A DNA stretch of 64,000 nt, taken from an uncultured Kiritimatiellota bacterium (GTDB taxonomy: Bacteria > Verrucomicrobiota > Kiritimatiellia > RFP12 > UBA1067). The stretch is taken from positions 18,451-82,450 of the forward strand of contig CAKTUI010000004.1 of the NCBI GenBank assembly GCA_934621385.1, given 5' to 3'. The first letter of the stretch is position 1. Every line of letters starts with the position of its first letter. The translations under genes and the position numbers were made by a program. The notes beneath the pieces are model-generated. The model made no database searches, had not been told where the DNA came from, and worked only from the letters and a program-made list of their open reading frames with translations. This document shows positions 3,503 through 57,027 of the stretch, one piece after another.

Positions 3503-5155
3503 TTAGTGCAACTGGACGTCAATCGCCCGCTCCCGCCGCCACTGCTCCGAAACGGTCGCATCGTCCGCGCCTGAGGCCAGCGGGAACCTGAAGAACCCCT
3601 CGTAGGCGACGGCACCGGCGAGTCCACGGAGTGAAAACGCCACCTCCCGCGCATTCGCTGGCAGGCGACCGACGATTTCAACCGAATTGTCGCGGTAGAG
3701 ATTCTTGAGAAGCATGGGATAGGCCTCCGCCGGACAAGTCGATGCGAAAACAATGCGCAAATCCGAGAACACGGGGTCGCGGAAGCGTGCGGACAACGCA
3801 TCGAGCCCCTCGCCCGAACGGTTCCTGAACCAACCGTCGAACACAAAGCTCTCGCCACGGTTGCCGCGTGTCAGCACGTCAATGAGTTCACGGTTCGCCG
3901 ATGACTTGACGCCATACATATAGACCGAGACGAGTCCGTCATTCAAGGTGGAGAACTTGGAGATAATCTGAGCCGTCTCGCGCACACCGACATTCGCATC
4001 GCCATCCGTCACGACGAGGGCGATGAGCGGCCGCGTCGGATCGCGAGGAAGCGTCAGCACCGACGAAATCGTGGCGAAGACATCCGTCCGGCCGTGCGCG
4101 GCAAGTTTGCCGAGCCAGGCATCGCCCGCATCGAAACTCGCCGCGTCACACGCCTGCCACGACTTGAACGCATACGAGAAGCGGTCGCGGAAGGCTACGA
4201 GATTAAAGCGGTCGCCCGTATTCGTGCAACTGCGCAGGATTCGCCGCGCCGCCTTGCGGCAGCTGTTGAGCCGCTCGTTGCCAATCGACCCCGAGGCATC
4301 AATGAGAATGACCACATCCTTCGGGACAACCGGCAGGCGGGGCTTCGGTTTCACGGTCACGCGAAAGTAGGTGAAGCCCCCGTCCGTCTGACGATCGAGT
4401 CGCGTCTCAACGAACTTGGAGAGGTCGACCGCCGAGGCGGAGGCGACCAGTTCGCGCACGGCCGACTTCTCCTGTTCGACGACTTTTTCGTCAACTGCCG
4501 CCATCACCTCCTCGACAGGCTTGAAGTCCGCCACCTTCTTCGTCTCGTCCACGAGAGGCGCCAAAGCCGTCCCCTTCTCGACCTCGGTCGCCGCCGCCGG
4601 CAGTTCCACCCGTGGCGTCGCGGCAAAAATCGGAGCCTCAAAAACAGGCGAAACCATCTCGGCGTGAATCGGCAGGTCGGAGGGCTCGGTTGCGATGACG
4701 GGGACGCGGGCCTCTTCGGGCATCCGAAATGCCTCCGTTGCCGGTGGAATCTCGGGCGAAGCCGTCTCTATGGGAAGACGCGGAGCCTCATCCTCAGGAC
4801 GCATCCGCGTCAGAAGTTCAGGCAGGGCCGCGTCGGCCGGAAGCGTCATCGCCCCCTCGTCCGAAGGTTTCGGTGCCGCCGTCTGTGGAGCTGGTAATGC
4901 GGCCCGCGTCTCCTGCGCATCGGGAGACTCCTTTTCGGCCTCGACGTCTTCCAGCACGTCAATCTTGACCGGATCCGGTCTCTCCGCCGCTTCCGAAACC
5001 ACCATCGGGCCGCGCCGTACCAGTTGCGAAACGCCATTCGTCATGTGCGTCATGACTTTCGGCTTGGCCCAAATCATCAGTCCGATGTGGACAACGGCCG
5101 ACAACACCAGTGCCGCGACAATCAAGTCGCGTCCCAAACCACCTCTTCGCGTCAT
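3503..5155 (-). CDS. Membrane-anchored von Willebrand factor A (vWA) domain protein
   Basis: N-terminal TM segment LIVAALVLSAVVHIGLMIW, a Pro/Ala/Glu-rich linker, then VVILIDASGSIGN (DxSxS MIDAS) and VVTDGDAN. ATGA overlap with the upstream TPR gene. Confidence 0.7.
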   Translation of the reverse strand: MTRRGGLGRDLIVAALVLSAVVHIGLMIWAKPKVMTHMTNGVSQLVRRGPMVVSEAAERPDPVKIDVLEDVEAEKESPDAQETRAALPAPQTAAPKPSDEGAMTLPADAALPELLTRMRPEDEAPRLPIETASPEIPPATEAFRMPEEARVPVIATEPSDLPIHAEMVSPVFEAPIFAATPRVELPAAATEVEKGTALAPLVDETKKVADFKPVEEVMAAVDEKVVEQEKSAVRELVASASAVDLSKFVETRLDRQTDGGFTYFRVTVKPKPRLPVVPKDVVILIDASGSIGNERLNSCRKAARRILRSCTNTGDRFNLVAFRDRFSYAFKSWQACDAASFDAGDAWLGKLAAHGRTDVFATISSVLTLPRDPTRPLIALVVTDGDANVGVRETAQIISKFSTLNDGLVSVYMYGVKSSANRELIDVLTRGNRGESFVFDGWFRNRSGEGLDALSARFRDPVFSDLRIVFASTCPAEAYPMLLKNLYRDNSVEIVGRLPANAREVAFSLRGLAGAVAYEGFFRFPLASGADDATVSEQWRRERAIDVQLH

Positions 5156-7107
5156 TTGACCTCCTTCGAATCCTCAGCAGGAAGGGACTTGAGAATCTCG
5201 CCGGCAGTCGTTGCGGACGGTGTCCTCTCGAAAAGTTCCGTCACCACCGTCGCATACGACCGCGCATGCTTGTAATCGTGCCTGCCCACGCAGACTTCCG
5301 CCAGATGCAAGTAGGCCTCGGCGCGTGCCGCCGCGTCCTTGGCATTCAGTTCGACGGCTCGCTTCAGCGTCGTCTCGGCATTCGTCCAGTCCTCACTGCG
5401 GGTCTGGAGCGCCCCGAGGCGCAGGGCCACCTTCGGTACGTCCTCCGTCACGCATGTTTCGGCGAGGCACTTCTGGTAGGCCTCCGCCGCACGGGCAAAC
5501 GCCCCATCGGCCTCCTCCGAGAAGCCCAGCAGGGCATAGCCGCACTGCCGCCATTCGGCCCGCTCGTTCCGCACGAGTGCACGGGCGCAGATTTTCGCCT
5601 CCTCGCCGGACAGGAGTTTGCCAACGGCGAGAATCTTCGCGGCGGACATCCGCTCCGTCGCCCCCTCGCGCACGAGTTTCGCATAGGCCGTCCGCGCCGC
5701 CTCGATATGGTCCTCATTGAAATCGTGGTCGGCAATCATGAGCCGCGCCTCACGGGACTCGTCCAGGCCAAGACCCTCCTCCGCAAGGGCCTTCTTCAGA
5801 AACTCGACGCCTTCCGCCTCATGCCCCATCCGCACGGCCGCGACGCCACGCCAGTATGTCGCCTCTGTCCGATTCCGCCCCTCAAGTTTTCCGAGCAGGG
5901 CGGACTGGAGGGAGAGATCCGCCGCAGCCCAACGCTCCTCGCGCAGATCCATCAACGCCTTGCGGAACGTGGCCTCAGCCGCCTCGGGCGTATCTGGGTA
6001 GGCCTTCGAAATGTCGGCGTACTCGCTCATGGCCTCATCCTTGCGCCCGGCCTTCTCGTAGGCCCAGGCGAGGACCAGCCTGTCCGCCGCCGCCTTCGAG
6101 ACGGCCACGACGCGTCTCATGCACTCGACCATCTTCGTTGCATCATCCGCCGCGCGCGCCTCCTGAAAGCCAATCCGTGCCAACCACGACTCCGCCATGA
6201 CGCGGTAGTCGCCCTGTGGGAAATTGAGCAGGTACGACTCAAACAGGGCCTTTGCGGACTCCGCCCCCTGGCTCGCGGATGTGGCGATGGCCTTCAAATA
6301 GGCGATGCCGTCTTTGACTTTCGCCGGGGACTCCGGACGAATCGCCGCGCACATCGCGAGGGCATCCGCATACCGTCCCGTCAGGTAACTGCTCCAGGCA
6401 CTTGTGCAGGTCGCCTCCGTCGCATACTTTCCGTTCGGATAGCGGCGCAAGTAGCGGCGCATCAGCGAATCGGCCTCACCGTAGCGTGCGCGGCGGTAGC
6501 TGACTTCGGCGGCGAGATAGAGGGCCTCCTCGGCAAAGGCCCCGTCGCTGAAAGCCACGTCGAGATAAAGTCCAACCGCCTTGCGAACCGCCACCTCATC
6601 GGGCGATGTCTGCAGAATCTGGGCGAGGCGAATCTTGGCGTAGGGGGCATTGCGCCCCTTGGGATCGAGCGCAAGATAGCGCATCAGCGCATTCGTGCTC
6701 CCCGTGTTCAGTCCGATGTGATAAAGCGCCGAGGCGCGAATCCCGCTTGCCACACGATCCGAGTCAAGGAGCAGCAACTCCGCATTCTGCTCCTCGACGG
6801 AACCCGCCAACGCACGATTAAGACGGGCGCGATCGGCGAGGTCGGAAGCCGGGTATTTCGCAAGCAGTTCCCCGTATTCCCGCCGCGCCTCCTTCGACTT
6901 GCCGAGCGCACGGTCGCATTCGGCCAGACGGTAGAGCAGGCCATCCCCCGAGAGGGACTTTTCGCCGACCAGCGCGGCATACTCGGTCCGTGCCTCCGAC
7001 CACATTCCACGGTTGAAAAGGCGGTCGGCCATCGCCAGCCGGTCGACGGGGGCGACGGCAATCGCGGCAACGACCGCCGGTAACATGAATAGGCAAAACA
7101 ACTTCAT
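5152..7107 (-). CDS. Secreted tetratricopeptide-repeat (TPR) protein
   Basis: ORF 5152..7221 trimmed to the ATG at 7107, giving signal peptide MKLFCLFMLPAVVAAIAVAP. The body is repeated A/L/Y-rich ~34-aa TPR-like units. First gene behind the promoter at 7116. Confidence 0.65.
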   Translation of the reverse strand: MKLFCLFMLPAVVAAIAVAPVDRLAMADRLFNRGMWSEARTEYAALVGEKSLSGDGLLYRLAECDRALGKSKEARREYGELLAKYPASDLADRARLNRALAGSVEEQNAELLLLDSDRVASGIRASALYHIGLNTGSTNALMRYLALDPKGRNAPYAKIRLAQILQTSPDEVAVRKAVGLYLDVAFSDGAFAEEALYLAAEVSYRRARYGEADSLMRRYLRRYPNGKYATEATCTSAWSSYLTGRYADALAMCAAIRPESPAKVKDGIAYLKAIATSASQGAESAKALFESYLLNFPQGDYRVMAESWLARIGFQEARAADDATKMVECMRRVVAVSKAAADRLVLAWAYEKAGRKDEAMSEYADISKAYPDTPEAAEATFRKALMDLREERWAAADLSLQSALLGKLEGRNRTEATYWRGVAAVRMGHEAEGVEFLKKALAEEGLGLDESREARLMIADHDFNEDHIEAARTAYAKLVREGATERMSAAKILAVGKLLSGEEAKICARALVRNERAEWRQCGYALLGFSEEADGAFARAAEAYQKCLAETCVTEDVPKVALRLGALQTRSEDWTNAETTLKRAVELNAKDAAARAEAYLHLAEVCVGRHDYKHARSYATVVTELFERTPSATTAGEILKSLPAEDSKEVK

Positions 7108-7115
7108 AGGTGGAA

Positions 7116-7124
7116 ATTGTAGCA
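7116..7124 (-). promoter_or_regulatory. Extended -10 promoter (TGCTACAAT on the minus strand) for the TPR/vWA operon; leaderless-type spacing
   Basis: Reverse complement of 7116-7124 is TGCTACAAT. A TTTACG -35-like hexamer lies 17 nt upstream. Only 8 nt separate the -10 from the ATG at 7107. Confidence 0.45.
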
Positions 7125-7157
7125 ATTTCCGTGTGCCGCGTAAAGGGGGCAACCGCT

Positions 7158-7452
7158 TGCTCGGGGGCTTGCGCGAAGCTGCCGCTCGGTCTCGGCTTCC
7201 ACGGCTGCGCTCACCTCTCACGCGTCGACAACAGAGTCTTCTTAGCCTATCCTACCTCGGCGACTATCACTGGTTGCGGACGAGACAACTCTTACGGTGG
7301 CGCCCCGTGGAAGACCTCACTCGCGACACTTCGCGCACACCCCCTCGCCCGAGAGGGGGGACAGGCCGACTACAGGCCGGAACACAGCAAATGGTCTTGT
7401 CGGCCTGCCGTCCGGCAGGCTCCCGGCCTTCCTCAAGTGCCGCGCCTGCGCC
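7158..7452. repeat. Intergenic ~290-bp repeat family, copy 1
   Basis: Aligns by eye with 15225-15460 and 17941-18229. Shared blocks: TGCTCGGGGGCTTGCGCG, CCTCGGCGACTATCACTGGTTGCGGACG, CTYCTACGGYGGCG, CTCGCCCGAGAGG, CTGCCGTCCGGCAG, GCCGCGCCYGCGCC. Confidence 0.7.
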
Positions 7453-7518
7453 ATCTGAACGCCGACGCTGTGTGGCTTTCCTCCGCTCTTCTGCCCCCCC
7501 TTCCAAGCGCGGCAGATT

Positions 7519-7550
7519 GCGGGGTTCGGGGACGCAGTCCCCGTCCCTTC
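7519..7550. repeat. Short hairpin repeat GCGGRGGTTCGGGGnCnCAGTCCCCnTCCYTTC, copy 1
   Basis: GCGGGGTTCGGGGACGCAGTCCCCGTCCCTTC, stem GGGGAC/GTCCCC (7528-7542). Near-identical copies at 18828-18858 and 36267-36297. Confidence 0.5.
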
Positions 7551-7656
7551 GACTGAACTATTCGAAGGCTTCCATCCCCCCTACCCCCGAACCGTCGGCT
7601 GTCATCCGAGCGCGCAGCAGACTCGGCTTCCTCGGTTACTCCCCTCGCAACGGAAT

Positions 7657-7782
7657 TCCGATGCCCGTCGGACGATTTTCTGATGCCCGTCGGAAAAATT
7701 TCTGATGGGCATCGGAAAGTGCTCTGATGGTCATCGGACAGCCCTGTGATGGGCATCGGGACAGAATCCGACCGAGGTAACG
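7657..7782. repeat. Array a: 5.5 tandem units of the 16-bp palindrome TCYGATG-NN-CRTCGGA at exactly 22-bp spacing
   Basis: Units at 7657-7672, 7679-7694, 7701-7716, 7723-7738 and 7745-7760, plus a half-site at 7767-7773. Dyad centres are 22 bp apart and the 6-bp spacers are unrelated. Confidence 0.85.
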
Positions 7783-8025
7783 CTTTTGCGTCCCGCCGCG
7801 ACTTCAGGAACGACACCCCTGTCGGTCTCCGAAACATCAACAGAACAACCGAATCCGAAAAGAATCCCATGATTGCGACTTCCCCTTCCCACCTGCGCTT
7901 TTACCTTATTATAGAGGAGTACTCGTTTCATTCCTCAATCCCCATGCTTCCCGCACCTTCCCACGGTTGAGCATCTTCGCCCCTCAGACGCCCCCGAGAA
8001 CGAAGCCAAAGACACTGTTTGCCCA

Positions 8026-8055
8026 TTGACAGCAAACGACCAGTTTTGATAGACT
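8026..8055 (+). promoter_or_regulatory. Sigma-70-type promoter of the leu operon
   Basis: TTGACA (8026-8031), 18-nt spacer, TAGACT (8050-8055) preceded by TGA (extended -10-like). Lies 26 nt upstream of the leader ORF. Confidence 0.55.
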
Positions 8056-8080: not shown

Positions 8081-8176
8081 ATGAACGACGCGAACATCAC
8101 AACGCTCTTCCTTCTTGGAAGCCTTGGTCTCGAGCTTACTCAGCGCGGGGCGCGCTCGGTTTTGTGAGGTTTTCGA
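8081..8176 (+). promoter_or_regulatory. Candidate leucine leader peptide plus terminator-like hairpin (attenuator) upstream of leuA
   Basis: uORF 8081-8167 = MNDANITTLFLLGSLGLELTQRGARSVL, with 6 Leu in an 11-codon stretch. Hairpin AGCGCG-GGG-CGCGCT (8142-8156) is followed by GGTTTTGTGAGGTTTTC. Confidence 0.4.
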
Positions 8177-8248
8177 CAACCATGACAAACCACGGCAAGC
8201 GACCCCGCTCGAAAGAGAGGGGTTGTTTTGTATAAGAAAAGAGATACA

Positions 8249-9766
8249 ATGGACACGATTAAAATATTCGATACAACGCTGCGAGACGGCGAACAGGCCC
8301 CCGGCTACTCAATGAACCTCGAAGAGAAGGTGCGCATGGCCCTTCAGCTTGAGGCCCTCGGCGTGGATGTCATGGAAGCCGGCTTCGCCATCGCCTCCAA
8401 GGGTGACTTCGATTCCGTCAAGGCGATCGCCGATGCCGTGAAGACCTCGTCCGTCTGCTCCCTCGCTCGCGCCCTCGAAAAGGACATCGACGCGGCGACG
8501 GATGCCATCGCAACGGCCGTCCATCCGCGCATCCACACCTTTATCGCGACCAGCGATCTGCACCTCCAGTACAAGCTGAAAATCAGCCGCGAGGACTGCC
8601 TGAGCCAGATTCGGAAGGCCGTCTCCTACGCCCGCAATCGCTGCGCCGAAGTCGAGTTCTCGGCCGAGGATGCCTCGCGCACCGATCCCGAGTTCCTCTG
8701 CCAGGCGGTCGAGACCGCCATTGCCGCCGGCGCAAGCGTCGTGAACATCCCCGACACCGTCGGCTACGCAACCCCCGAGGAGTTCGGCCGGCTGATTCGG
8801 ACGATTCACGACAACGTCAAGGGAATGGACAAGGCCGTCATCTCCGTCCACTGCCACAATGACCTCGGTCTCGCCGTCGCCAACACGTTTGCCGGCATCG
8901 AGAATGGTGCGCGGCAGGCCGAATGCACGATTACGGGCATCGGCGAGCGCGCGGGAAATGCCGCGCTCGAAGAGATTGCCATGGGCCTGCGCACCCGTGC
9001 GGACTTCTACAAGGGCTTGAGCTGCGGCATCCATACGGAGGAAATCGCCCGCACGGCGAAACTGCTCTCGACCATCACCACGGTCAAGATTGCCCCCAAC
9101 AAGCCCATCGTTGGCGCGAACGCCTTCGCCCACGAGAGCGGCATTCACCAGCACGGTGTCCTCTCGAAGGCCGAGACCTACGAAATCATGACGCCAGAAT
9201 CGGTCGGCATGCAGAAGACGGAGCTCGTGCTCGGCAAGCACTCAGGCCAGCATGCGCTCGAAACGCGCCTCCACGACCTCGGCTACGACCTCACGCCCGA
9301 GCGCATCAAGGAAGTCTTCGAGGCCTTCAAGAACCTCGCTGACCGCAAGAAACGCATCACCGACCGCGACCTCGTCGCACTGGCCGAGTCGCACGTCGCC
9401 TACAAGCCCAGCAGCACCAACGGCTGGAAGCTCGACTCGTTCGTCGTGAACAGCGGCAACCACATGAGCGCCACGGCCCAGGTCACCCTGACGAAGGGCG
9501 ACCAGAAGGTGCTGGAAGCCGCCATCGGCACCGGTCCCATCTACGCCTCGTTCAAGGCGATTGAGAAGATTATCCACCACAAGTTCGTGCTGGAGGACTA
9601 CCGAATTGACGCGGTGACCGAACACCGCGACGCCCTGGGCGAAGTGCTTGTCAGGATTTCGGACGAGAACGGCTCCTACCGTGGGCGCGGCGTTTCGACG
9701 GACGTAATCGAGGGCTCGATCCTCGCCTTGCTGGTGGCGGTGAACCGCATGATGGAGGGTAAGTAA
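8249..9766 (+). CDS. leuA: 2-isopropylmalate synthase
   Basis: ORF 8228..9766 trimmed to the ATG at 8249 ([19 protein letters not shown]). [12 protein letters not shown] motif and a C-terminal LeuA dimerisation/regulatory region are present. Confidence 0.9.
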
Positions 9767-15215: not shown

Positions 15216-15224
15216 CAAACCGCC

Positions 15225-15460
15225 TGCTCGTGGGTTTGCGCAAAGCTGCCGCTCGGTCTCGGCTGCCCTGCCTCGGCGGTTATCACTGGTTGCGAACGGA
15301 GACCACTCCTACGGCTGCGAGCCGCACCGCACCTCTCGTGCGACCGCCGCGCGCGCCCCCTCACCCGAGAGGAAGGGCAAGCCGCACACAGGCACCACAC
15401 GGCAGAAGGTTCTGCCGGCCTGCCGTCCGGCAGGCCCCGCCCATTCAGCCTGCCGCGCTC
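15225..15460. repeat. Intergenic ~290-bp repeat family, copy 2 (internal ~45-bp deletion relative to copies 1 and 3)
   Basis: TGCTCGTGGGTTTGCGCAAAGCTGCCGCTCGGTCTCGGC...CCTCGGCGGTTATCACTGGTTGCGAACGG...CTCACCCGAGAGG...CTGCCGTCCGGCAGG...CTGCCGCGCTC. Same orientation as the other copies. Confidence 0.7.
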
Positions 15461-17910: not shown

Positions 17911-17940
17911 CATTCCGCCGTCGGCGGCAATAGGACCGCG

Positions 17941-18229
17941 TGCTCGGGGGCTTGCGCGGCGGCTCGCCCGACCCGGATGCGGCGGCAATCTCGCAACGCC
18001 TTTCACGCGTCGACAAGCAGCTTCACTGAGTCTGCCCTGCCTCGGCGATTATCACAGGTTGCGGACGGTGACCTCTCCTACGGCGGCGAGTCGCACCGCA
18101 CCTCTCGTGCGACCACCGCGCTCACCCCACTCGCCCGAGAGGAGGAACAGGCCGGCTACAGGTGGAACGCGGTAGATGGTTTTACCAGTCTGCCGTCCGG
18201 CAGACCACACAAACTGCCGCGCCCGCGCC
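17941..18229. repeat. Intergenic ~290-bp repeat family, copy 3
   Basis: TGCTCGGGGGCTTGCGCGGCGG...TTCACGCGTCGACAAGCAG...CCTCGGCGATTATCACAGGTTGCGGACGG...CTCCTACGGCGGCGAG...CTCGCCCGAGAGG...CTGCCGTCCGGCAG...CTGCCGCGCCCGCGCC. Confidence 0.7.
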
Positions 18230-18411
18230 TACACAACGCCTGCGCGGCGCGGCGGTTTGCGCTTTGCTTTGCCGCAAGGAGCGCAAAGACCCCAAAGATG
18301 CCGAAGACCCCATCCCCATTTTCCCTGCGACCTTTGCGTCCCCTGCGGCTAAAACCACCCTCCCCCTTTCCGTGCGCTCCGCGTGTTCCGTGGTTCGTCC
18401 AACCCGCCCCC

Positions 18412-18827: not shown

Positions 18828-18858
18828 GCGGAGGTTCGGGGGCTCAGTCCCCCTTCGC
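18828..18858. repeat. Short hairpin repeat GCGGRGGTTCGGGG...GTCCCC, copy 2 (inside unit A)
   Basis: GCGGAGGTTCGGGGGCTCAGTCCCCCTTCGC. Compare 7519-7550 and 36267-36297. Confidence 0.5.
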
Positions 18859-19322: not shown

Positions 19323-19332
19323 ATTTGCCGTC

Positions 19333-19418
19333 GCTTCGGGTGCCTAAGCGCATGGTGCGCCTCGGCTGAGAAAAACCGATAGAACCTGAACGGGGTAATG
19401 CCCGCGTAGGAAAGGACA
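19333..19418 (+). promoter_or_regulatory. TPP (THI-box) riboswitch
   Basis: CTTCGGGTGCC...GGCTGAGAAAAACCGATAGAACCTGAACGGGGTAATGCCCGCGTAGGAAAGG matches the conserved THI-element cores (GGGUGC, CUGAGA, ACCUGA, UAAUNCC, GCGUAGGRA). It sits directly upstream of thiC and its 3' arm overlaps the AAAGGA ribosome-binding region. Confidence 0.8.
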
Positions 19419-19424
19419 GGACGC

Positions 19425-20729
19425 ATGACACAACTGGAAGCGGCCCGCAAGGGCCTGGTGACCGAGGCGATGAAAATCGTCGCGGCGGACGAGGGAATTG
19501 ATGCGGAGACCGTGCGAGTCGCCGTCGTACGCGGCGAGGCCGTCATCCCGCTGAACATCCACCACACAAACGCACAGCCCATTGGGGTCGGCCGACTCTT
19601 CCGCACGAAGATCAACGCGAATCTCGGCCGGAGCGTGACACATTCAGGCAAGGGAGACGAACTGGAGAAACTCGCCATCGCACTTAAGGCGGGAGCCGAC
19701 TTCATCATGGATCTTTCGGTTGGCTCGGATGACCTCAAGTCCATTCGACAGGGCTTGCTTGACGCGAGCGACCGTCCGCTCGGCACCGTCCCCGTCTACG
19801 AGACGATCTCCCGGCTCGAAGGCGACATCCCGCACATGGATCCATCCTTTCTGCTGGACGTCATCCGCGCACAGGCCGAACAGGGCGTTGACTTCATGAC
19901 GCTTCACGCCGGTCTTCTGCGGGCGGCCATCCCTCTCGCGATGAAGCGCAAGATGGGCATCGTCAGCCGAGGCGGCTCGATTATGGCCGAATGGATGATG
20001 GCCAACAACCGCGAGAATCCCCTGTACGAAAAGTGGGACGAGGTCCTCGACATTCTCGTCCAGCACGATGTCACCGTCTCTCTCGGCGACGGCCTGCGTT
20101 CCGGCTGTCTGGCGGATGCCTCGGATGCCGCGCAATTCGCTGAACTGGATGTGCTGGGCGAGCTGGTTGAGCGTTGCCGTGCGCGTGGCGTTCAGGTGAT
20201 GGTGGAAGGACCGGGCCACATCCCCTTCAACGAAATTCAGATGAATATGGAGCGCGAGCAGAAAGTCTGCAAGGATGCTCCCTTCTACGTGCTTGGTCCC
20301 GTCGTTACGGATGTCGCGCCCGGCTACGACCACATCGTCTCGGCGATTGGCGCAACGGCGGCGGCGACCTACGGGGCTTCGCTTCTCTGCTATGTCACGC
20401 CCGCCGAACACCTTGGACTTCCCGATGCCGACGAGGTGCATCGCGGCTGTATCGCCTCCCGCATCGCCGCGCATGCGGGTGATGTCGCCCGTGGACTGAA
20501 GGGTGCGCGGACACAAGACGACGCGATGGCCGATGCGCGGCGAAACTTCTGCTGGGACGAACAGTTTGCGGCATCGCTCGACCCCGAGCATGCGCGGACA
20601 CGCTGGCTGAAGACGCGGGCGCTCACCGATGCCGACCATGGCGACGACCACTGCTCAATGTGCGGCAAGCAGTTCTGCGCCGTGCGCACGTCACGCCGCA
20701 TACGCGACCTCGCGGCGAAAAGCCTCTGA
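19425..20729 (+). CDS. thiC: Phosphomethylpyrimidine synthase (short, ~430-aa form)
   Basis: IPLNIHHTNAQPIGVG, TKINANLG, MVEGPGHIP and C-terminal CSMCGKQFCA Fe-S motif. Confidence 0.9.
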   Translation: MTQLEAARKGLVTEAMKIVAADEGIDAETVRVAVVRGEAVIPLNIHHTNAQPIGVGRLFRTKINANLGRSVTHSGKGDELEKLAIALKAGADFIMDLSVGSDDLKSIRQGLLDASDRPLGTVPVYETISRLEGDIPHMDPSFLLDVIRAQAEQGVDFMTLHAGLLRAAIPLAMKRKMGIVSRGGSIMAEWMMANNRENPLYEKWDEVLDILVQHDVTVSLGDGLRSGCLADASDAAQFAELDVLGELVERCRARGVQVMVEGPGHIPFNEIQMNMEREQKVCKDAPFYVLGPVVTDVAPGYDHIVSAIGATAAATYGASLLCYVTPAEHLGLPDADEVHRGCIASRIAAHAGDVARGLKGARTQDDAMADARRNFCWDEQFAASLDPEHARTRWLKTRALTDADHGDDHCSMCGKQFCAVRTSRRIRDLAAKSL

Positions 20730-36266: not shown

Positions 36267-36297
36267 GCGGAGGTTCGGGGCGCAGTCCCCGTCCTTC
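36267..36297. repeat. Short hairpin repeat GCGGRGGTTCGGGG...GTCCCC, copy 3
   Basis: GCGGAGGTTCGGGGCGCAGTCCCCGTCCTTC. Compare 7519-7550 and 18828-18858. Confidence 0.5.
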
Positions 36298-54075: not shown

Positions 54076-54428
54076 TTCTGCACGGAGGACGAATTCGCTT
54101 CTCCGGGCAGAAGCGTTTCCCTTCTCCGTGACGAGCGAGTCCCGCCCTCCGTGCAGAAGCGTTCCGTTCTCCGTGGAGAGGCGTTCCGTCCCTTCGGGAA
54201 GAAGCGTTTCCCTCTCCGTGCAGACCATTTCTCGTCATCGCGGAGAAGCACTGTGCCTCTACACGGGGAGGCCTTGCCAACTCTGCACGGAGAACGCGTC
54301 GGTTCTACACGAAGAACGGAACGCTTCTACACGGAGAAAGTGTCAAGTCAACACGGAGAACAAAGCGATTCTACACGAAGAAAAAACCAAGTCTCCGTGT
54401 AGAAGGGAAACCGTTCTCCGTGTAGACT
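54076..54428. repeat. Array c: 16 units of the 14-bp motif TTCTCCGTGCAGAA / TTCTRCACGGAGAA at 22-24-bp spacing, with orientation blocks
   Basis: Motif centres: 54082.5(F), 54105.5, 54128.5, 54151.5, 54173.5, 54196.5, 54218.5 (all R), 54240.5, 54263.5, 54287.5, 54309.5, 54331.5, 54353.5, 54375.5 (all F), 54397.5, 54421.5 (R). Spacers are variable. Confidence 0.85.
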
Positions 54429-55104: not shown

Positions 55105-57027
55105 TTACCGCTGCGGACCGCCCGGGATTTCGCGCAACTCGCCGGGTGCAAGCGTCAGGGTCTGACCCCGGAATATGACCGTGCGCGGCGAAATGCAGTC
55201 CGTATTCAGCAAATACGCCCGATCGCCGTAGACGCTCCAGTTGATGTAATCCCTGTCGGGGCCCGCCACGTGCTCGCCCTGCACGCCCCCGAGCACACCC
55301 GTGAGGAGCGTCTTCCAGAACGCAAGCCGGAAGCCCGCCCGATAGGACGGGAACTCCTCCATCTCGCGCCGCGCCGCCGGATAGTCCCAGGCAAGGCAGA
55401 GCCAGTACGTCCCCTTCCCGTGGCGAACCTTCACGAGATAGGGCTTCTTGCCGAGCGTCGCGACCGCCTGCGCATTCGCCCCCAAGTCCGCGTCGGCCAC
55501 GCGCAACTTGACCGAGAGATGCGCCGGGTACGCCGCCTTGAGGAAGTCGGGCGTCGCGTCATTCGTCATGAGAATGTCCTCAATCAGTTCCGGGGACTTC
55601 ACGGTCACGCCCGGCACGGCCTGCACGAGATCCGCCGCCGTGTAGTTCGCATACTCGCGGTCGAGCCGCGCCGACAGCTGCGGAACGGTCAGGACGACCG
55701 TGCCGCCCTGGGCGACGTAGTCCCGGAGCGTCGCGGCAATCTTCGGTGTCATCGTGTTCCAGCCGCCGAAGGCCACGGCCTTGTAGCGCGCCAGATGCCG
55801 CACCGTCAGCGCATCGTCCGCATTCACCACGTCGAGCTGTCCGTAGGGCGTACCGCCCAGCCAGCCGTTCGCATAGGGCTTCAGGCAGTCGGTCGGACGC
55901 GGGAAGAACGTCTCCATCACCGCCTCCCAGGTGAATTCGGGTGCGCCGACCTTCCAGTTCGCATTCGTCTTCGCGAGATGGTGCTGACCGTAGATGGCGA
56001 AGATGTCGTGCGTCATGCCGACGTAGCCGTCGTAGTTGCCGATGAGCAGCGCGGCCTCGACATGCGGCGTTCCCTTCGCACGCGGATGCGCCTTCGTCCA
56101 CTGGTAGAACTCCTTCATCGTGCGCCGGTAGGCCTTCGGCACGTCGCCGTCATACCCCTGCTTCGGAGTCTTGAATTCGGCCATCGTGCCGTCCGGCGGC
56201 GTGTAGTCCTGGGCCTGAGTGGACTGCGAACCCGACTCCAGCACCATCATTCCCGTGCCCATGAGCCACATTTCCTTCAGACCGATGAGGAGCGAGTCGT
56301 ACTTCTGCTTCACGCCATAGGGGACGCGTGGCCAGCAGGTCTGCCACTCGTGCGCAAGCCACGCGCTCCACCAGTCGCCGCCGCGCCGCCGCGAGGCCCC
56401 ACGCGCCTCGGCCGTCGCATACGCCAGGTTGCCGCATCCGACCGCATACATCTCGTTGCAGATGTAGTCGATGCCGCCATCCAGCTCGTAGCAGGCGAGC
56501 GGCGAACCCGACGTCGAGAAGACGTTCGGCTCGCGCTCATCGGCCGGACGCGCCAACTGGTTCTTCTTCGGCGCGGCGAGCATCTTGCCGACGAGCCAGT
56601 CGTGCGCCTCCTTCAAATCGCGGCACTTCGGCCAGTCCTTGAAGTAGCTCTTCTCGTCCTGGTAGAGAAAGCCCGCATATTCGCCGATGTTGTTGCCGAG
56701 GTAAAGCGGACCCCACGCCTTGCGGAGTTCCTTCGTCCGCGCCCCGCTCTGGTCGCCGTAGATGGTCATCACGTGGATGTTGTTCGCCTTCGCCCAACGG
56801 TACCAGTCCTTGCCAATCTTCTCGGGCAGCAGGTTCTCGCTCTTCGCCCACTGCACCCAGAGATTGCATTCGTCGTTCGTCATCAGTTCGCGGTACTCGG
56901 GACTCGTCCCGTAGCCCGTCACCCCGACGAGGATGTCGTTGCCGACGACGGGACACCTCGTCGCCGCGCAAAGCGCCGCGCCGAGCGCGGTGGAAAGAAT
57001 GGTCAGTATCAGTTTTGGCGGTCTCAT
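55105..57027 (-). CDS. Secreted protein of an unassigned GH-like family (putative clan GH-A barrel plus GH42-like C-terminal module)
   Basis: Signal peptide MRPPKLILTILSTALGAALCAA. GGIDYICNEMYAVG (NE), AHEWQT, KQKYDSLL, MMVLESGSQ (E), GGTPYGQLDV and FGGWNTMTP. Colinear with the C-terminal 640 aa of the neighbouring giant protein. Confidence 0.5.
   Translation of the reverse strand: MRPPKLILTILSTALGAALCAATRCPVVGNDILVGVTGYGTSPEYRELMTNDECNLWVQWAKSENLLPEKIGKDWYRWAKANNIHVMTIYGDQSGARTKELRKAWGPLYLGNNIGEYAGFLYQDEKSYFKDWPKCRDLKEAHDWLVGKMLAAPKKNQLARPADEREPNVFSTSGSPLACYELDGGIDYICNEMYAVGCGNLAYATAEARGASRRRGGDWWSAWLAHEWQTCWPRVPYGVKQKYDSLLIGLKEMWLMGTGMMVLESGSQSTQAQDYTPPDGTMAEFKTPKQGYDGDVPKAYRRTMKEFYQWTKAHPRAKGTPHVEAALLIGNYDGYVGMTHDIFAIYGQHHLAKTNANWKVGAPEFTWEAVMETFFPRPTDCLKPYANGWLGGTPYGQLDVVNADDALTVRHLARYKAVAFGGWNTMTPKIAATLRDYVAQGGTVVLTVPQLSARLDREYANYTAADLVQAVPGVTVKSPELIEDILMTNDATPDFLKAAYPAHLSVKLRVADADLGANAQAVATLGKKPYLVKVRHGKGTYWLCLAWDYPAARREMEEFPSYRAGFRLAFWKTLLTGVLGGVQGEHVAGPDRDYINWSVYGDRAYLLNTDCISPRTVIFRGQTLTLAPGELREIPGGPQR

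Follow-up and report, generated by a model that had tools for sequence, protein, structure and literature searches.

A phased tandem array of operator-like palindromes upstream of leuA in an uncultured gut Kiritimatiellia bacterium

Results

The DNA analysed here, a 64-kb stretch from an uncultured human-gut Kiritimatiellia bacterium that we refer to throughout as the window, is chromosomal in content, carrying leuABCD, thiC with a TPP riboswitch, glycogen phosphorylase (glgP), prs, pth, mfd and glycoside hydrolases. Its LeuA protein is 99% identical to LeuA of MAG GCA_050874585 ('Verrucomicrobiota bacterium'), and the nearest relatives are gut and rumen Kiritimatiellae. An unstranded tandem array of short palindromes, array a (7657–7782), sits in a non-coding, divergent gap of ~1 kb between a TPR/BamD(YfiO)-like gene on the minus strand (5152–7221, assigned by Pfam) and leuA on the plus strand (2-isopropylmalate synthase, 8249–9766), which is followed by leuC, leuD and leuB. 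The leuA promoter (8026–8055, plus strand) is of the sigma70 type, TTGACA-18-TAGACT with TG before the -10 element, and is conserved in the sister MAG L005. Array a lies 253–370 bp upstream of the leuA -35 element, with 253 bp separating its last half-site from the -35. Downstream of the promoter, a leucine-rich leader peptide (MNDANITTLFLLGSLGLELTQRGARSVL, 7 Leu in 28 residues) and terminator hairpins (8081–8167, plus strand) are predicted to form a classical attenuator that is conserved in relatives, homologues of the leader peptide being found in L006, L014 and L015. Because of this attenuator, leucine control of leuA would need no contribution from array a. The same gap carries an insertion of roughly 300 bp (7171–7469) without a counterpart in the sister strain, as well as a 45-bp hairpin motif, each of which is present in three copies in the window.

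Array a consists of five 16-bp palindromes with an exact 22-bp period, separated by AT-enriched 6-bp spacers: unit 1, TCCGATG-CC-CGTCGGA (TCCGATGCCCGTCGGA, 7657–7672), with its core in the 'CCC' orientation; unit 2, TCTGATG-CC-CGTCGGA (TCTGATGCCCGTCGGA, 7679–7694); unit 3, TCTGATG-GG-CATCGGA (TCTGATGGGCATCGGA, 7701–7716), with its core flipped relative to units 1–2 and also readable as TCTGAT-N4-ATCGGA, an FNR/CRP-like core; unit 4, TCTGATG-GT-CATCGGA (TCTGATGGTCATCGGA, 7723–7738); and unit 5, TGTGATG-GG-CATCGGG (TGTGATGGGCATCGGG, 7745–7760), which has two mismatches, degenerate outer arms and a left half reading TGTGAT. At the sixth lattice position (7767–7782) only a left half-site, TCCGACC, is recognisable. 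The spacers (cgattt, aaaatt, aagtgc, cagccc and acagaa) are unrelated, and all of these coordinates and sequences, including the half-site at 7767, agree with the original prediction. Since the central hexamer of units 1–2 is inverted relative to that of units 3–5, the array as a whole also forms a long quasi-palindrome with its centre near 7697. Within each unit, dyad symmetry extends to the innermost G...C, which would be unneeded in the loop of a hairpin and therefore argues for recognition of duplex DNA by a dimer. The dyads of all window arrays can be expressed as a 5-bp arm, a 4–6 bp core and a 5-bp arm. The spacers of array a and of a second array, array b, have a G+C content of 37% in a surrounding region of roughly 60%; judged by sequence, the spacers appear unconstrained in their letters and biased towards AT in their composition.

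A pattern scan of the 64-kb window with the 16-mer TCYGATG-NN-CRTCGGA returned four exact matches, all in array a, and at two or fewer mismatches 15 strand-matches against 3.1 expected, all in array a or b. As the original prediction had asked of a real array, no match to the array a dyad at this threshold fell in coding DNA of the window, and at up to 2–3 mismatches the dyad motifs of the window occur inside arrays only, with no dispersed single copies. The lag-22 autocorrelation of array a (0.77) is the top periodic signal in the 64 kb, and Tandem Repeats Finder likewise returned a period of 22. The two open reading frames that run into the array (7013–7705, plus strand; 7433–7870, minus strand) have no Pfam match and failed a GC3 test, and a difference of exactly 22 bp from the sister strain L005 would throw any frame out of register; these observations rule out coding DNA and uphold the earlier statement that no coding ORF covers the array.

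A 22-bp period is classical for iterons, and those of plasmids R6K, RK2, pSC101 and F combine it with 4–7 units and sequence turnover between replicons; centromere-like repeat arrays are likewise phased. Iteron or centromere geometry, which had been put forward for array a, would make the array part of a plasmid, a chromid or an integrated element. However, iterons are direct repeats lying by a rep gene at an origin, and array a has neither feature, its units being dyads whose core orientation flips. The neighbours are housekeeping genes (leuABCD, prs, mfd, thiC, glgP), no rep, par or integrase gene was found among the Pfam-annotated genes of the window, and no linked parA/parB or parM/parR operon was found by Pfam among the flanking and other scanned window genes. 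The cumulative GC skew of the window is monotonic, blastn with array a against PLSDB and INPHARED returned no plasmid or phage match, and three arrays of different sequence occur within 64 kb. We therefore regard an iteron array or partition centromere as extremely improbable. CRISPR arrays also differ, with repeats of 23–47 bp and unique spacers of similar length, compared with a 16-bp repeat and a 6-bp spacer in array a.

The window has four intergenic gaps of more than 1 kb, and three of them carry a lattice of this kind. Array b (37067–37242, unstranded), located between an EamA gene and mfd, stops ~100 bp short of the mfd promoter, and its eight positions follow an exact 22-bp lattice. 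The original prediction held that the palindrome of array a recurs there; this is borne out for units 1, 5 and 8 (37067, 37155 and 37221), which are TCCGATG-type, two-mismatch relatives of the array a dyad, but not for units 2–4, which are a different dyad, CTTACTG-NN-CAGTAAG, on the same lattice, nor for units 6–7, which are degenerate. Units 1–5 form an inverted repeat with 51-nt arms, and unit 4 carries a mirrored G:C to C:G change that retains self-complementarity. That two or more unrelated palindromes share a single 22-bp phase in array b points to a geometric constraint of the kind imposed by protein architecture. Array c (54076–54427, unstranded), between a terminator and the prs promoter, comprises ~16 units of TTCT-CCGTGY-AGAA in two opposed blocks, with a 22–23 bp period and a register that drifts within that range. 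Arrays a, b and c, together with those in relatives L006 and L015, are all located upstream of sigma70-type promoters in apparently untranscribed DNA. Coordinates show inconsistent helical phasing between the arrays and the -35/-10 elements, and no plausible small regulator ORF was found in the array-bearing gaps.

Clustered short intergenic palindromes of alternating orientation and variable copy number, accompanied by other dispersed repeats, are shared with REP/BIME elements and the dRS3/NIME elements of Neisseria. If the arrays were structural repeats of this type, hairpins or cruciforms in RNA or single-stranded DNA would be recognised by their structure, and semi-selfish, homogenised units would act as terminators, mRNA stabilisers or recombination substrates, a reading that we consider possible though rather improbable. 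It fits the change of arm sequences between arrays with self-complementarity kept, as in the mirrored change of array b unit 4, and the composition of the large intergenic regions, which are mosaics of dispersed repeats such as the 300-bp insertion and the 45-bp hairpin motif. However, REPs are 20–40 bp long, highly dispersed, mostly in transcribed 3' regions and without a two-turn lattice, whereas array a units are just 16 bp long with stems of 5–6 bp, and their palindromy continues through the would-be loop. The window arrays lie upstream of promoters and not in 3' UTRs (a and b in divergent gaps, c between terminator and promoter), their motifs are confined to the arrays and have no Rfam family, no RAYT or IS200-type gene recurs near the arrays, with 64 kb and a few further loci of this genome covered, and structural recognition leaves the fixed 22-bp period common to unrelated palindromes unexplained.

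Folding predictions bear on a further reading, in which a plus-strand transcript of array a forms one long hairpin, units 1–2 pairing with units 3–4, and serves as an sRNA, an antisense RNA or a processing substrate. The plus strand has an MFE of -75.3 kcal/mol (z = -8.0), compared with -50.4 kcal/mol (z = -2.7) for the minus strand, all imperfections of units 1–4 are G.U-compatible on the plus strand, and G to A changes in the distant relative L106 convert G.U into A-U pairs. Nevertheless, the G.U bias amounts to about three independent changes inherited by duplication, units 2 and 5 of L005 carry A.A and C.A mismatches, arrays b and c have no strand bias, and no convincing plus-strand promoter reads into array a. 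A scan of the window at Rfam 15 gathering scores returned the TPP riboswitch (19326–19429) as its sole match, and no Rfam match at gathering score covers the arrays in the window or in 20 related loci. A non-coding RNA is accordingly a distinctly unlikely reading. From the REP/BIME-like RNA hairpin that the original prediction named as its alternative, what stands is that the plus strand could form a very stable long hairpin; the remainder is weakened by the location upstream of promoters, the empty Rfam search and the G...C pair extending into the loop.

Array a is identical across four metagenome contigs of the same strain. The sister MAG L005, 9% diverged at 4-fold degenerate sites, retains the array minus one 22-bp unit from the unit 3–4 region. 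Compared with L005, 5/64 palindrome positions are changed, 10/24 spacer positions (p = 5e-4) and 82/640 positions elsewhere in the aligned gap. In this comparison the palindromes show no significantly better conservation than the remaining intergenic DNA (7.8% vs 12.8%, p = 0.32), and what stands out is the fast change of the spacers. In the more distant L106 the array is present with its unit order unchanged and its units read TGAT-N4-ATCA. Here substitutions affect 4/64 positions in palindromes 1–4, compared with 9/24 in the spacers (p = 8e-4) and 35/83 in the flanks (p = 5e-7), so that the palindromes are 7x better conserved than the flanks. This drift of spacers and flanks supports the proposal that the palindrome is conserved rather than a whole duplicated unit, and the presence of the array in both L005 and L106 bears on the proposed check for conservation in related genomes. 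The left flank of the L106 array is homologous to a different gap of the window (18247–18395), an adjacency that fits the REP/BIME-like reading.

Beyond these two genomes the sequence of the dyad turns over. Upstream of the leuA promoter, L006, whose contig begins within its array, carries a different dyad, TTYGACCCGGGTCRAA, with a ~22.5-bp period, and L015 carries about ten GCGAC-TGGG-GTCGC units at 22 bp. In most other relatives the region upstream of leuA lacks an array. L056 carries TTGATGCGCATCAA, the exact FNR consensus, and L006 carries TTGAC-N4-GTCAA. Array c is kept in nine strain contigs with few differences, namely single-base changes, a 45-bp deletion and spacer swaps; strains L066 and L069 lack the 45 bp, equal to two units, and L063 and L071 show a spacer replacement resembling gene conversion. 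Taken from these alignments, the evolutionary pattern appears to be one in which period and dyad symmetry are retained, dyad sequence turns over, and units are gained or lost whole.

Whole-unit indels between strains, the gene-conversion-like replacement in L063 and L071, the flipped cores and global inverted symmetry of the arrays, and the absence of the leuA upstream array from most relatives would all be compatible with a functionless minisatellite. Slippage would then gain and lose 22-bp units, and quasi-palindrome template switching would keep arms symmetric and flip cores; part of the metagenome matches described below are indeed plain tandem duplications. Mutation alone, however, gives no account of a 22–23 bp period across unrelated palindromes in several phyla, of differing spacers with alike palindromes inside one array, of the 7x conservation of palindromes over flanks in L106, or of the lattices found upstream of every HU-HIG gene examined. 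We consider this explanation unlikely.

In place of array c, the sister MAG has a gene for a GAF-AAA+-HTH_8 activator, followed by four TTCTSRTGCGCA units at 22 bp. Such an activator gene adjoining a four-unit lattice of related motif raises the prospect of an upstream activating sequence for a sigma54 enhancer-binding protein, a hexamer of which would place three dimers on adjacent dyads, and many lattices elsewhere have exactly three units. Pattern and weighted scans, though, found no conserved -24/-12 promoter (GG-N10-GC) near arrays a, b and c, the strongest candidates directly adjoin the arrays and are missing from L005, the downstream promoters are of the sigma70 type, and no activator gene recurs beside the arrays, making this reading very improbable.

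To place array a in a wider context, we scanned metagenome contigs for three GATGNNCRTC cores with 12–13 bp between them (22–23 bp apart), a pattern whose chance expectation we estimate at <1. The scan found at least 120 loci; among the matches listed, 71 are distinct, with G+C contents of 0.25–0.69, and about one third of these are plain tandem duplications. The remaining loci among the matches listed have extended complementary arms (AAAGATG..CATCTTT, GAGATG..CATCTC, TCCGATG..CATCGGA) and non-identical spacers, and most of these palindrome-type loci comprise exactly three units with a 23-bp period or four with a 22-bp period. Where units 4 to 8 occur they are likewise on the lattice. Array a is a member of a class that extends well beyond the window. 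Viral contigs contributed four matches only.

The metagenome lattices are intergenic, the 28 palindrome-type ones among the matches listed lying between tandem (14), divergent (7) and convergent (7) genes. These contexts fit the roughly 1:2:1 expected of random intergenic placement, as REP/BIME-like repeats would, and in L152 three copies of TCCGATGSSCATCGGA fill a convergent 3'-3' gap with A and T runs on the flanks, resembling a bidirectional terminator, which also speaks for that reading. In an AT-rich family, a conserved Bacteroidota-type TAnnTTTG promoter, 80–105 bp upstream, reads into the array, and a co-directional gene follows 140–400 bp downstream in at least 10 of 13 cases. Its half-sites vary independently (AAAGATG...CATCATT), which is a pattern of protein half-sites and not of RNA pairing. 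Bacteroidetes LexA motifs were considered as a match and ruled out because the motifs differ. No description of such lattices was found in Rfam or in the papers searched on 22-bp palindrome arrays, Kiritimatiellae repeats and HU-HIG proteins. Palindrome lattices of 22–23 bp are widespread and apparently undescribed.

The sole recurrent neighbours of the metagenome lattices among the matches listed are small HU-HIG (PF18291) genes, which always point away from the array and start 40–250 bp from it. As an independent test, homologues of one HU-HIG protein were fetched by protein sequence alone, and all five paralogues examined have a lattice of 3–5 units 60–150 bp upstream of the start codon, with four different palindromes among them: five units of CGAAACGTTTCG upstream of P0070, five of TAATGCGCATTA upstream of P0107, three of CAAAGCTTTG upstream of each of P0048 and P0037, and three of CCGT-N6-ACGG upstream of P0062. 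The query gene itself is preceded by three units of GTGATGCGCATCA. The two paralogues that share a dyad have the N-terminal segment INPVTK-VLHW in common, and this segment differs in the others. HU-HIG proteins form a lineage-expanded, fast-diverging Bacteroidetes clade of unassigned function, for which the sole proposal is a speculative role in biological conflict (PMC5499826). Lattice-type sites are mentioned neither there (PMC5499826) nor in a 2025 preprint on HU/IHF specificity.

The HU-HIG promoter lattices resemble array a in having at least three dyads, a 22–23 bp period and an array-specific palindrome, and several of them carry its GATG-NN-CATC core. They differ in lying 40–250 bp upstream of an HU-HIG start codon, often with a GGGGTG spacer motif, neither of which applies to array a. 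Furthermore, tblastn with 12 HU-HIG proteins gave no match in the window or in any fetched Kiritimatiellia locus, and we therefore treat the link as a lead for the class and not as an assignment for array a.

Discussion

Array a is best filed as a phased tandem operator-like array and as a member of a widespread class of 22–23 bp palindrome lattices. We propose, with about even confidence for and against, that its units are candidate protein-binding dyads with an FNR/CRP-box-like core, TGAT-N4-ATCR, that assemble a cooperative nucleoprotein complex on one face of the DNA. The array would offer five or six sites to a dimeric, sequence-specific DNA-binding protein, each a 14–16 bp dyad, TCYGAT-N4-ATCRGA, whose eight inner conserved positions match TGAT-N4-ATCA. 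With centres exactly 22 bp apart, or about two helical turns, and AT-enriched linkers free in sequence, dimers bound to the sites would all line up along one side of the helix, where they could touch each other and bend the DNA in phase. Such bending would wrap ~130 bp into a compact complex, forming cooperatively and in an all-or-none manner in the control region between the TPR gene and leuA. We infer binding, cooperativity and any effect on transcription from the arrangement of the sites: symmetry about the centre, exactly maintained spacing, AT-biased variable linkers and heterologous dyads in phase argue for protein architecture over RNA folding or mutation alone. The one-face, operator-type geometry of the original prediction also fits best with the symmetric centres, the whole-unit indels, the retained palindromes and the single phase shared in array b. 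Because array a is far from the leuA promoter and leuA has its own leucine attenuator, an architectural, insulating or titrating role would be likelier than that of a simple operator; the array may serve as an upstream architectural or regulatory platform (enhancer-, silencer- or insulator-like) or as a titration platform, not as a core-promoter operator.

Several observations argue against a protein lattice. Array a is remote from the nearest promoter (-250 to -370); with at least four different palindromes in 64 kb, either several paralogous binders or a single structure-specific one would be required; seven of the 28 palindrome-type lattices in other taxa lie between convergent genes, where operators are unexpected; and homogenisation by gene conversion could mimic selection.

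The sequence of the sites suggests a CRP/FNR-type regulator as one candidate binder. The FNR box is TTGAT-N4-ATCAA and the CRP box is TGTGA-N6-TCACA within a 22-bp site, a TGAT-N4-ATCA core being common to both, and the site length equals the lattice period. Units 3–5 of array a read TGAT-N4-ATCG, the L106 units TGAT-N4-ATCA and L056 TTGAT-N4-ATCAA. Known CRP/FNR boxes, however, are single or paired at positions such as -41.5 and -61.5, whereas the window arrays have 5–16 abutting sites, and array a, with 5–6 sites 253–370 bp upstream, occupies none of the class I, II or III promoter positions. A jackhmmer search over the ORFs of ~1.3 Mb of fetched DNA, with E. coli CRP and FNR as queries, found no CRP/FNR-like gene in the window or in the fetched Kiritimatiellia loci. 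The other candidate is an HU-HIG-like protein with an HU/IHF fold, as suggested by the lattices that accompany HU-HIG genes elsewhere.

Phased dyads read by cooperating dimers have well-known precedents. In phage lambda, OR1–3 and OL1–3 are tandem 17-bp pseudo-palindromes with AT-rich spacers of 6–7 bp and centres 23–24 bp apart, bound by cooperative dimers on one face, and the unit count and spacing of such tripartite operators equal those of the triple 23-bp metagenome lattices. The window arrays depart from this arrangement in having 5–16 units, no adjacent cI/cro-like gene pair and a housekeeping chromosome as their setting, and array a lies at least 250 bp upstream, whereas lambda's operators overlap the promoter. 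TyrR boxes, GlpR/DeoR operators and ARG boxes are also adjacent palindromes about two turns apart, read by a tetramer or hexamer. They have 2–4 sites and one conserved sequence per regulon, whereas the lattices described here keep their period but differ in palindrome from array to array and from species to species.

More speculatively, and in our estimate improbable as stated, two-turn palindrome lattices could be a general bacterial cis element: addressable platforms, each made of its own dyad, on which cognate proteins from fast-diversifying DNA-binding families assemble as cooperative filaments. In Bacteroidota the family would be HU-HIG, and Kiritimatiellia would have some counterpart of it; arrays a, b and c would be chromosomal examples that organise or insulate promoter regions. 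Each palindrome would evolve quickly together with its binder, in the manner of an arms race or an addressing code.

Should the arrays prove to be protein lattices, uncultured gut Kiritimatiellia would build unusually large phased nucleoprotein platforms by housekeeping promoters (leuA, mfd and prs), and according to the metagenome scan many Bacteroidota-like genomes would do likewise. Such an architecture would resemble ordinary bacterial operators less than it does enhancers, insulators or centromeres. The HU-HIG link offers a concrete, testable function for an expanded, fast-evolving protein clade, the pairing of fixed geometry with freely changing sequence provides a natural system for the co-evolution of binding sites and binders, and the arrays could supply orthogonal DNA-protein pairs. 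If they are instead neutral or selfish repeats, they would still account for breaks in assemblies and for differences between strains in these intergenic regions.

Palindrome lattices upstream of HU-HIG genes

Genes of HU-HIG (PF18291), a clade of small DNA-binding proteins, carry a palindrome lattice upstream of each, made up of three to five units with a period of 22–23 bp (loci L084, L095, L102, L105, L110, L140, L166, L168, L170, L196, L200, L204, L208, L211 and L214). The dyad is specific to the HU-HIG paralogue that it precedes, and a GGGGTG motif is often present in the spacer. All five HU-HIG genes that we had fetched independently of the DNA pattern showed such an upstream lattice. 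In the literature searched, we found no description of palindrome lattices upstream of HU-HIG genes.

Lattices in other contigs

The palindrome of array a, the 22-bp lattice upstream of leuA, was observed as TCCGATGSSCATCGGA in three units at 22 bp in L152 (1029–1082), and also in L151 and L078. This triple fills the ~100 bp that separate two convergent genes on a Bacteroidota-like contig with a G+C content of 0.45. A different arrangement is seen in an AT-rich dispersed module of ~250 bp (L082, L085, L088, L090, L093, L110, L117, L127, L159, L161, L174, L185 and L189), in which a conserved TAnnTTTG promoter is followed by ~75 variable bp, three AAAGATG-NN-CATCTTT dyads at 23 bp and a hairpin resembling a terminator, AAAAAGTCCTTGAT...ATCAAGACTTTTT. 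One 801-kb contig bears at least three copies of this module.

Among the fetched records, L056 contains long poly-G and poly-C runs at 1895–1910 and 2620–2640. Such runs, together with taxonomic labels at odds with gene content, suggest that the L056, L026 and L027 records contain artefacts of assembly or binning.

Further lattices in the window and the region upstream of prs

The eight positions of array b (37067–37242) fall exactly on a 22-bp lattice that combines palindromes of at least two unrelated kinds, the TCCGATG type and CTTACTG-NN-CAGTAAG; units 1–5 form an inverted repeat with 51-nt arms, and the mfd promoter lies ~100 bp downstream of the array end. Two AAAGGTC-N4-GACCTTT dyads, 21 bp apart, were also seen at 36779–36820, and the related AAAAAGGTCTGAC occurs at 22-bp spacing in another Kiritimatiellia species (L008 1284–1340).

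Array c (54076–54427), upstream of the prs promoter, consists of ~16 TTCT-CCGTGY-AGAA units with a period of 22–23 bp, split into two opposed blocks, and strains differ in it through the deletion of two units and the exchange of spacers. The content upstream of prs is itself strain-variable (L062–L071): a 640-aa protein in some cases, in others a GT8+GT2 pair and in others again a sigma54-type activator. At L064 666–2310, a four-unit TTCTSRTGCGCA lattice takes the place of array c, after a GAF-AAA+-HTH_8 gene. Diverged paralogous segments (55744–56720 and 57554–58512; 73–83% identity, offset by ~1810 bp) connect the 640-aa gene (55105–57027), whose product, scanned alone, had no Pfam match, with the adjacent 2031-aa gene (57044–63139).

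Dispersed elements and leader regulation

Three copies of a ~300-bp dispersed element are present in the window (7171–7469, 15218–15438 and 17935–18208), each just upstream of the start of a minus-strand gene (TPR, epimerase and GH95). The sister strain L005 lacks the 7171–7469 copy, which is an insertion whose ends carry a short GGCTT-like duplication. The element looks like a MITE or a mobile 5′ leader element. A hairpin motif of ~28–45 bp, GGTTCGGGGACGCAGTCCCCGTCC, is found, always in one orientation, in each of the window's three largest intergenic gaps (7519–7546, 18829–18856 and 36267–36294), 35–95 bp upstream of the start codons of TPR (in L005) and EamA.

Upstream of leuA, a leader peptide rich in leucine (7 of 28 residues) and terminator hairpins (8081–8240) constitute a classical leucine attenuator, which is conserved in several Kiritimatiellae (L005, L006, L014 and L015). 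Upstream of thiC lies a TPP riboswitch (RF00059; 19326–19429, 57.9 bits).
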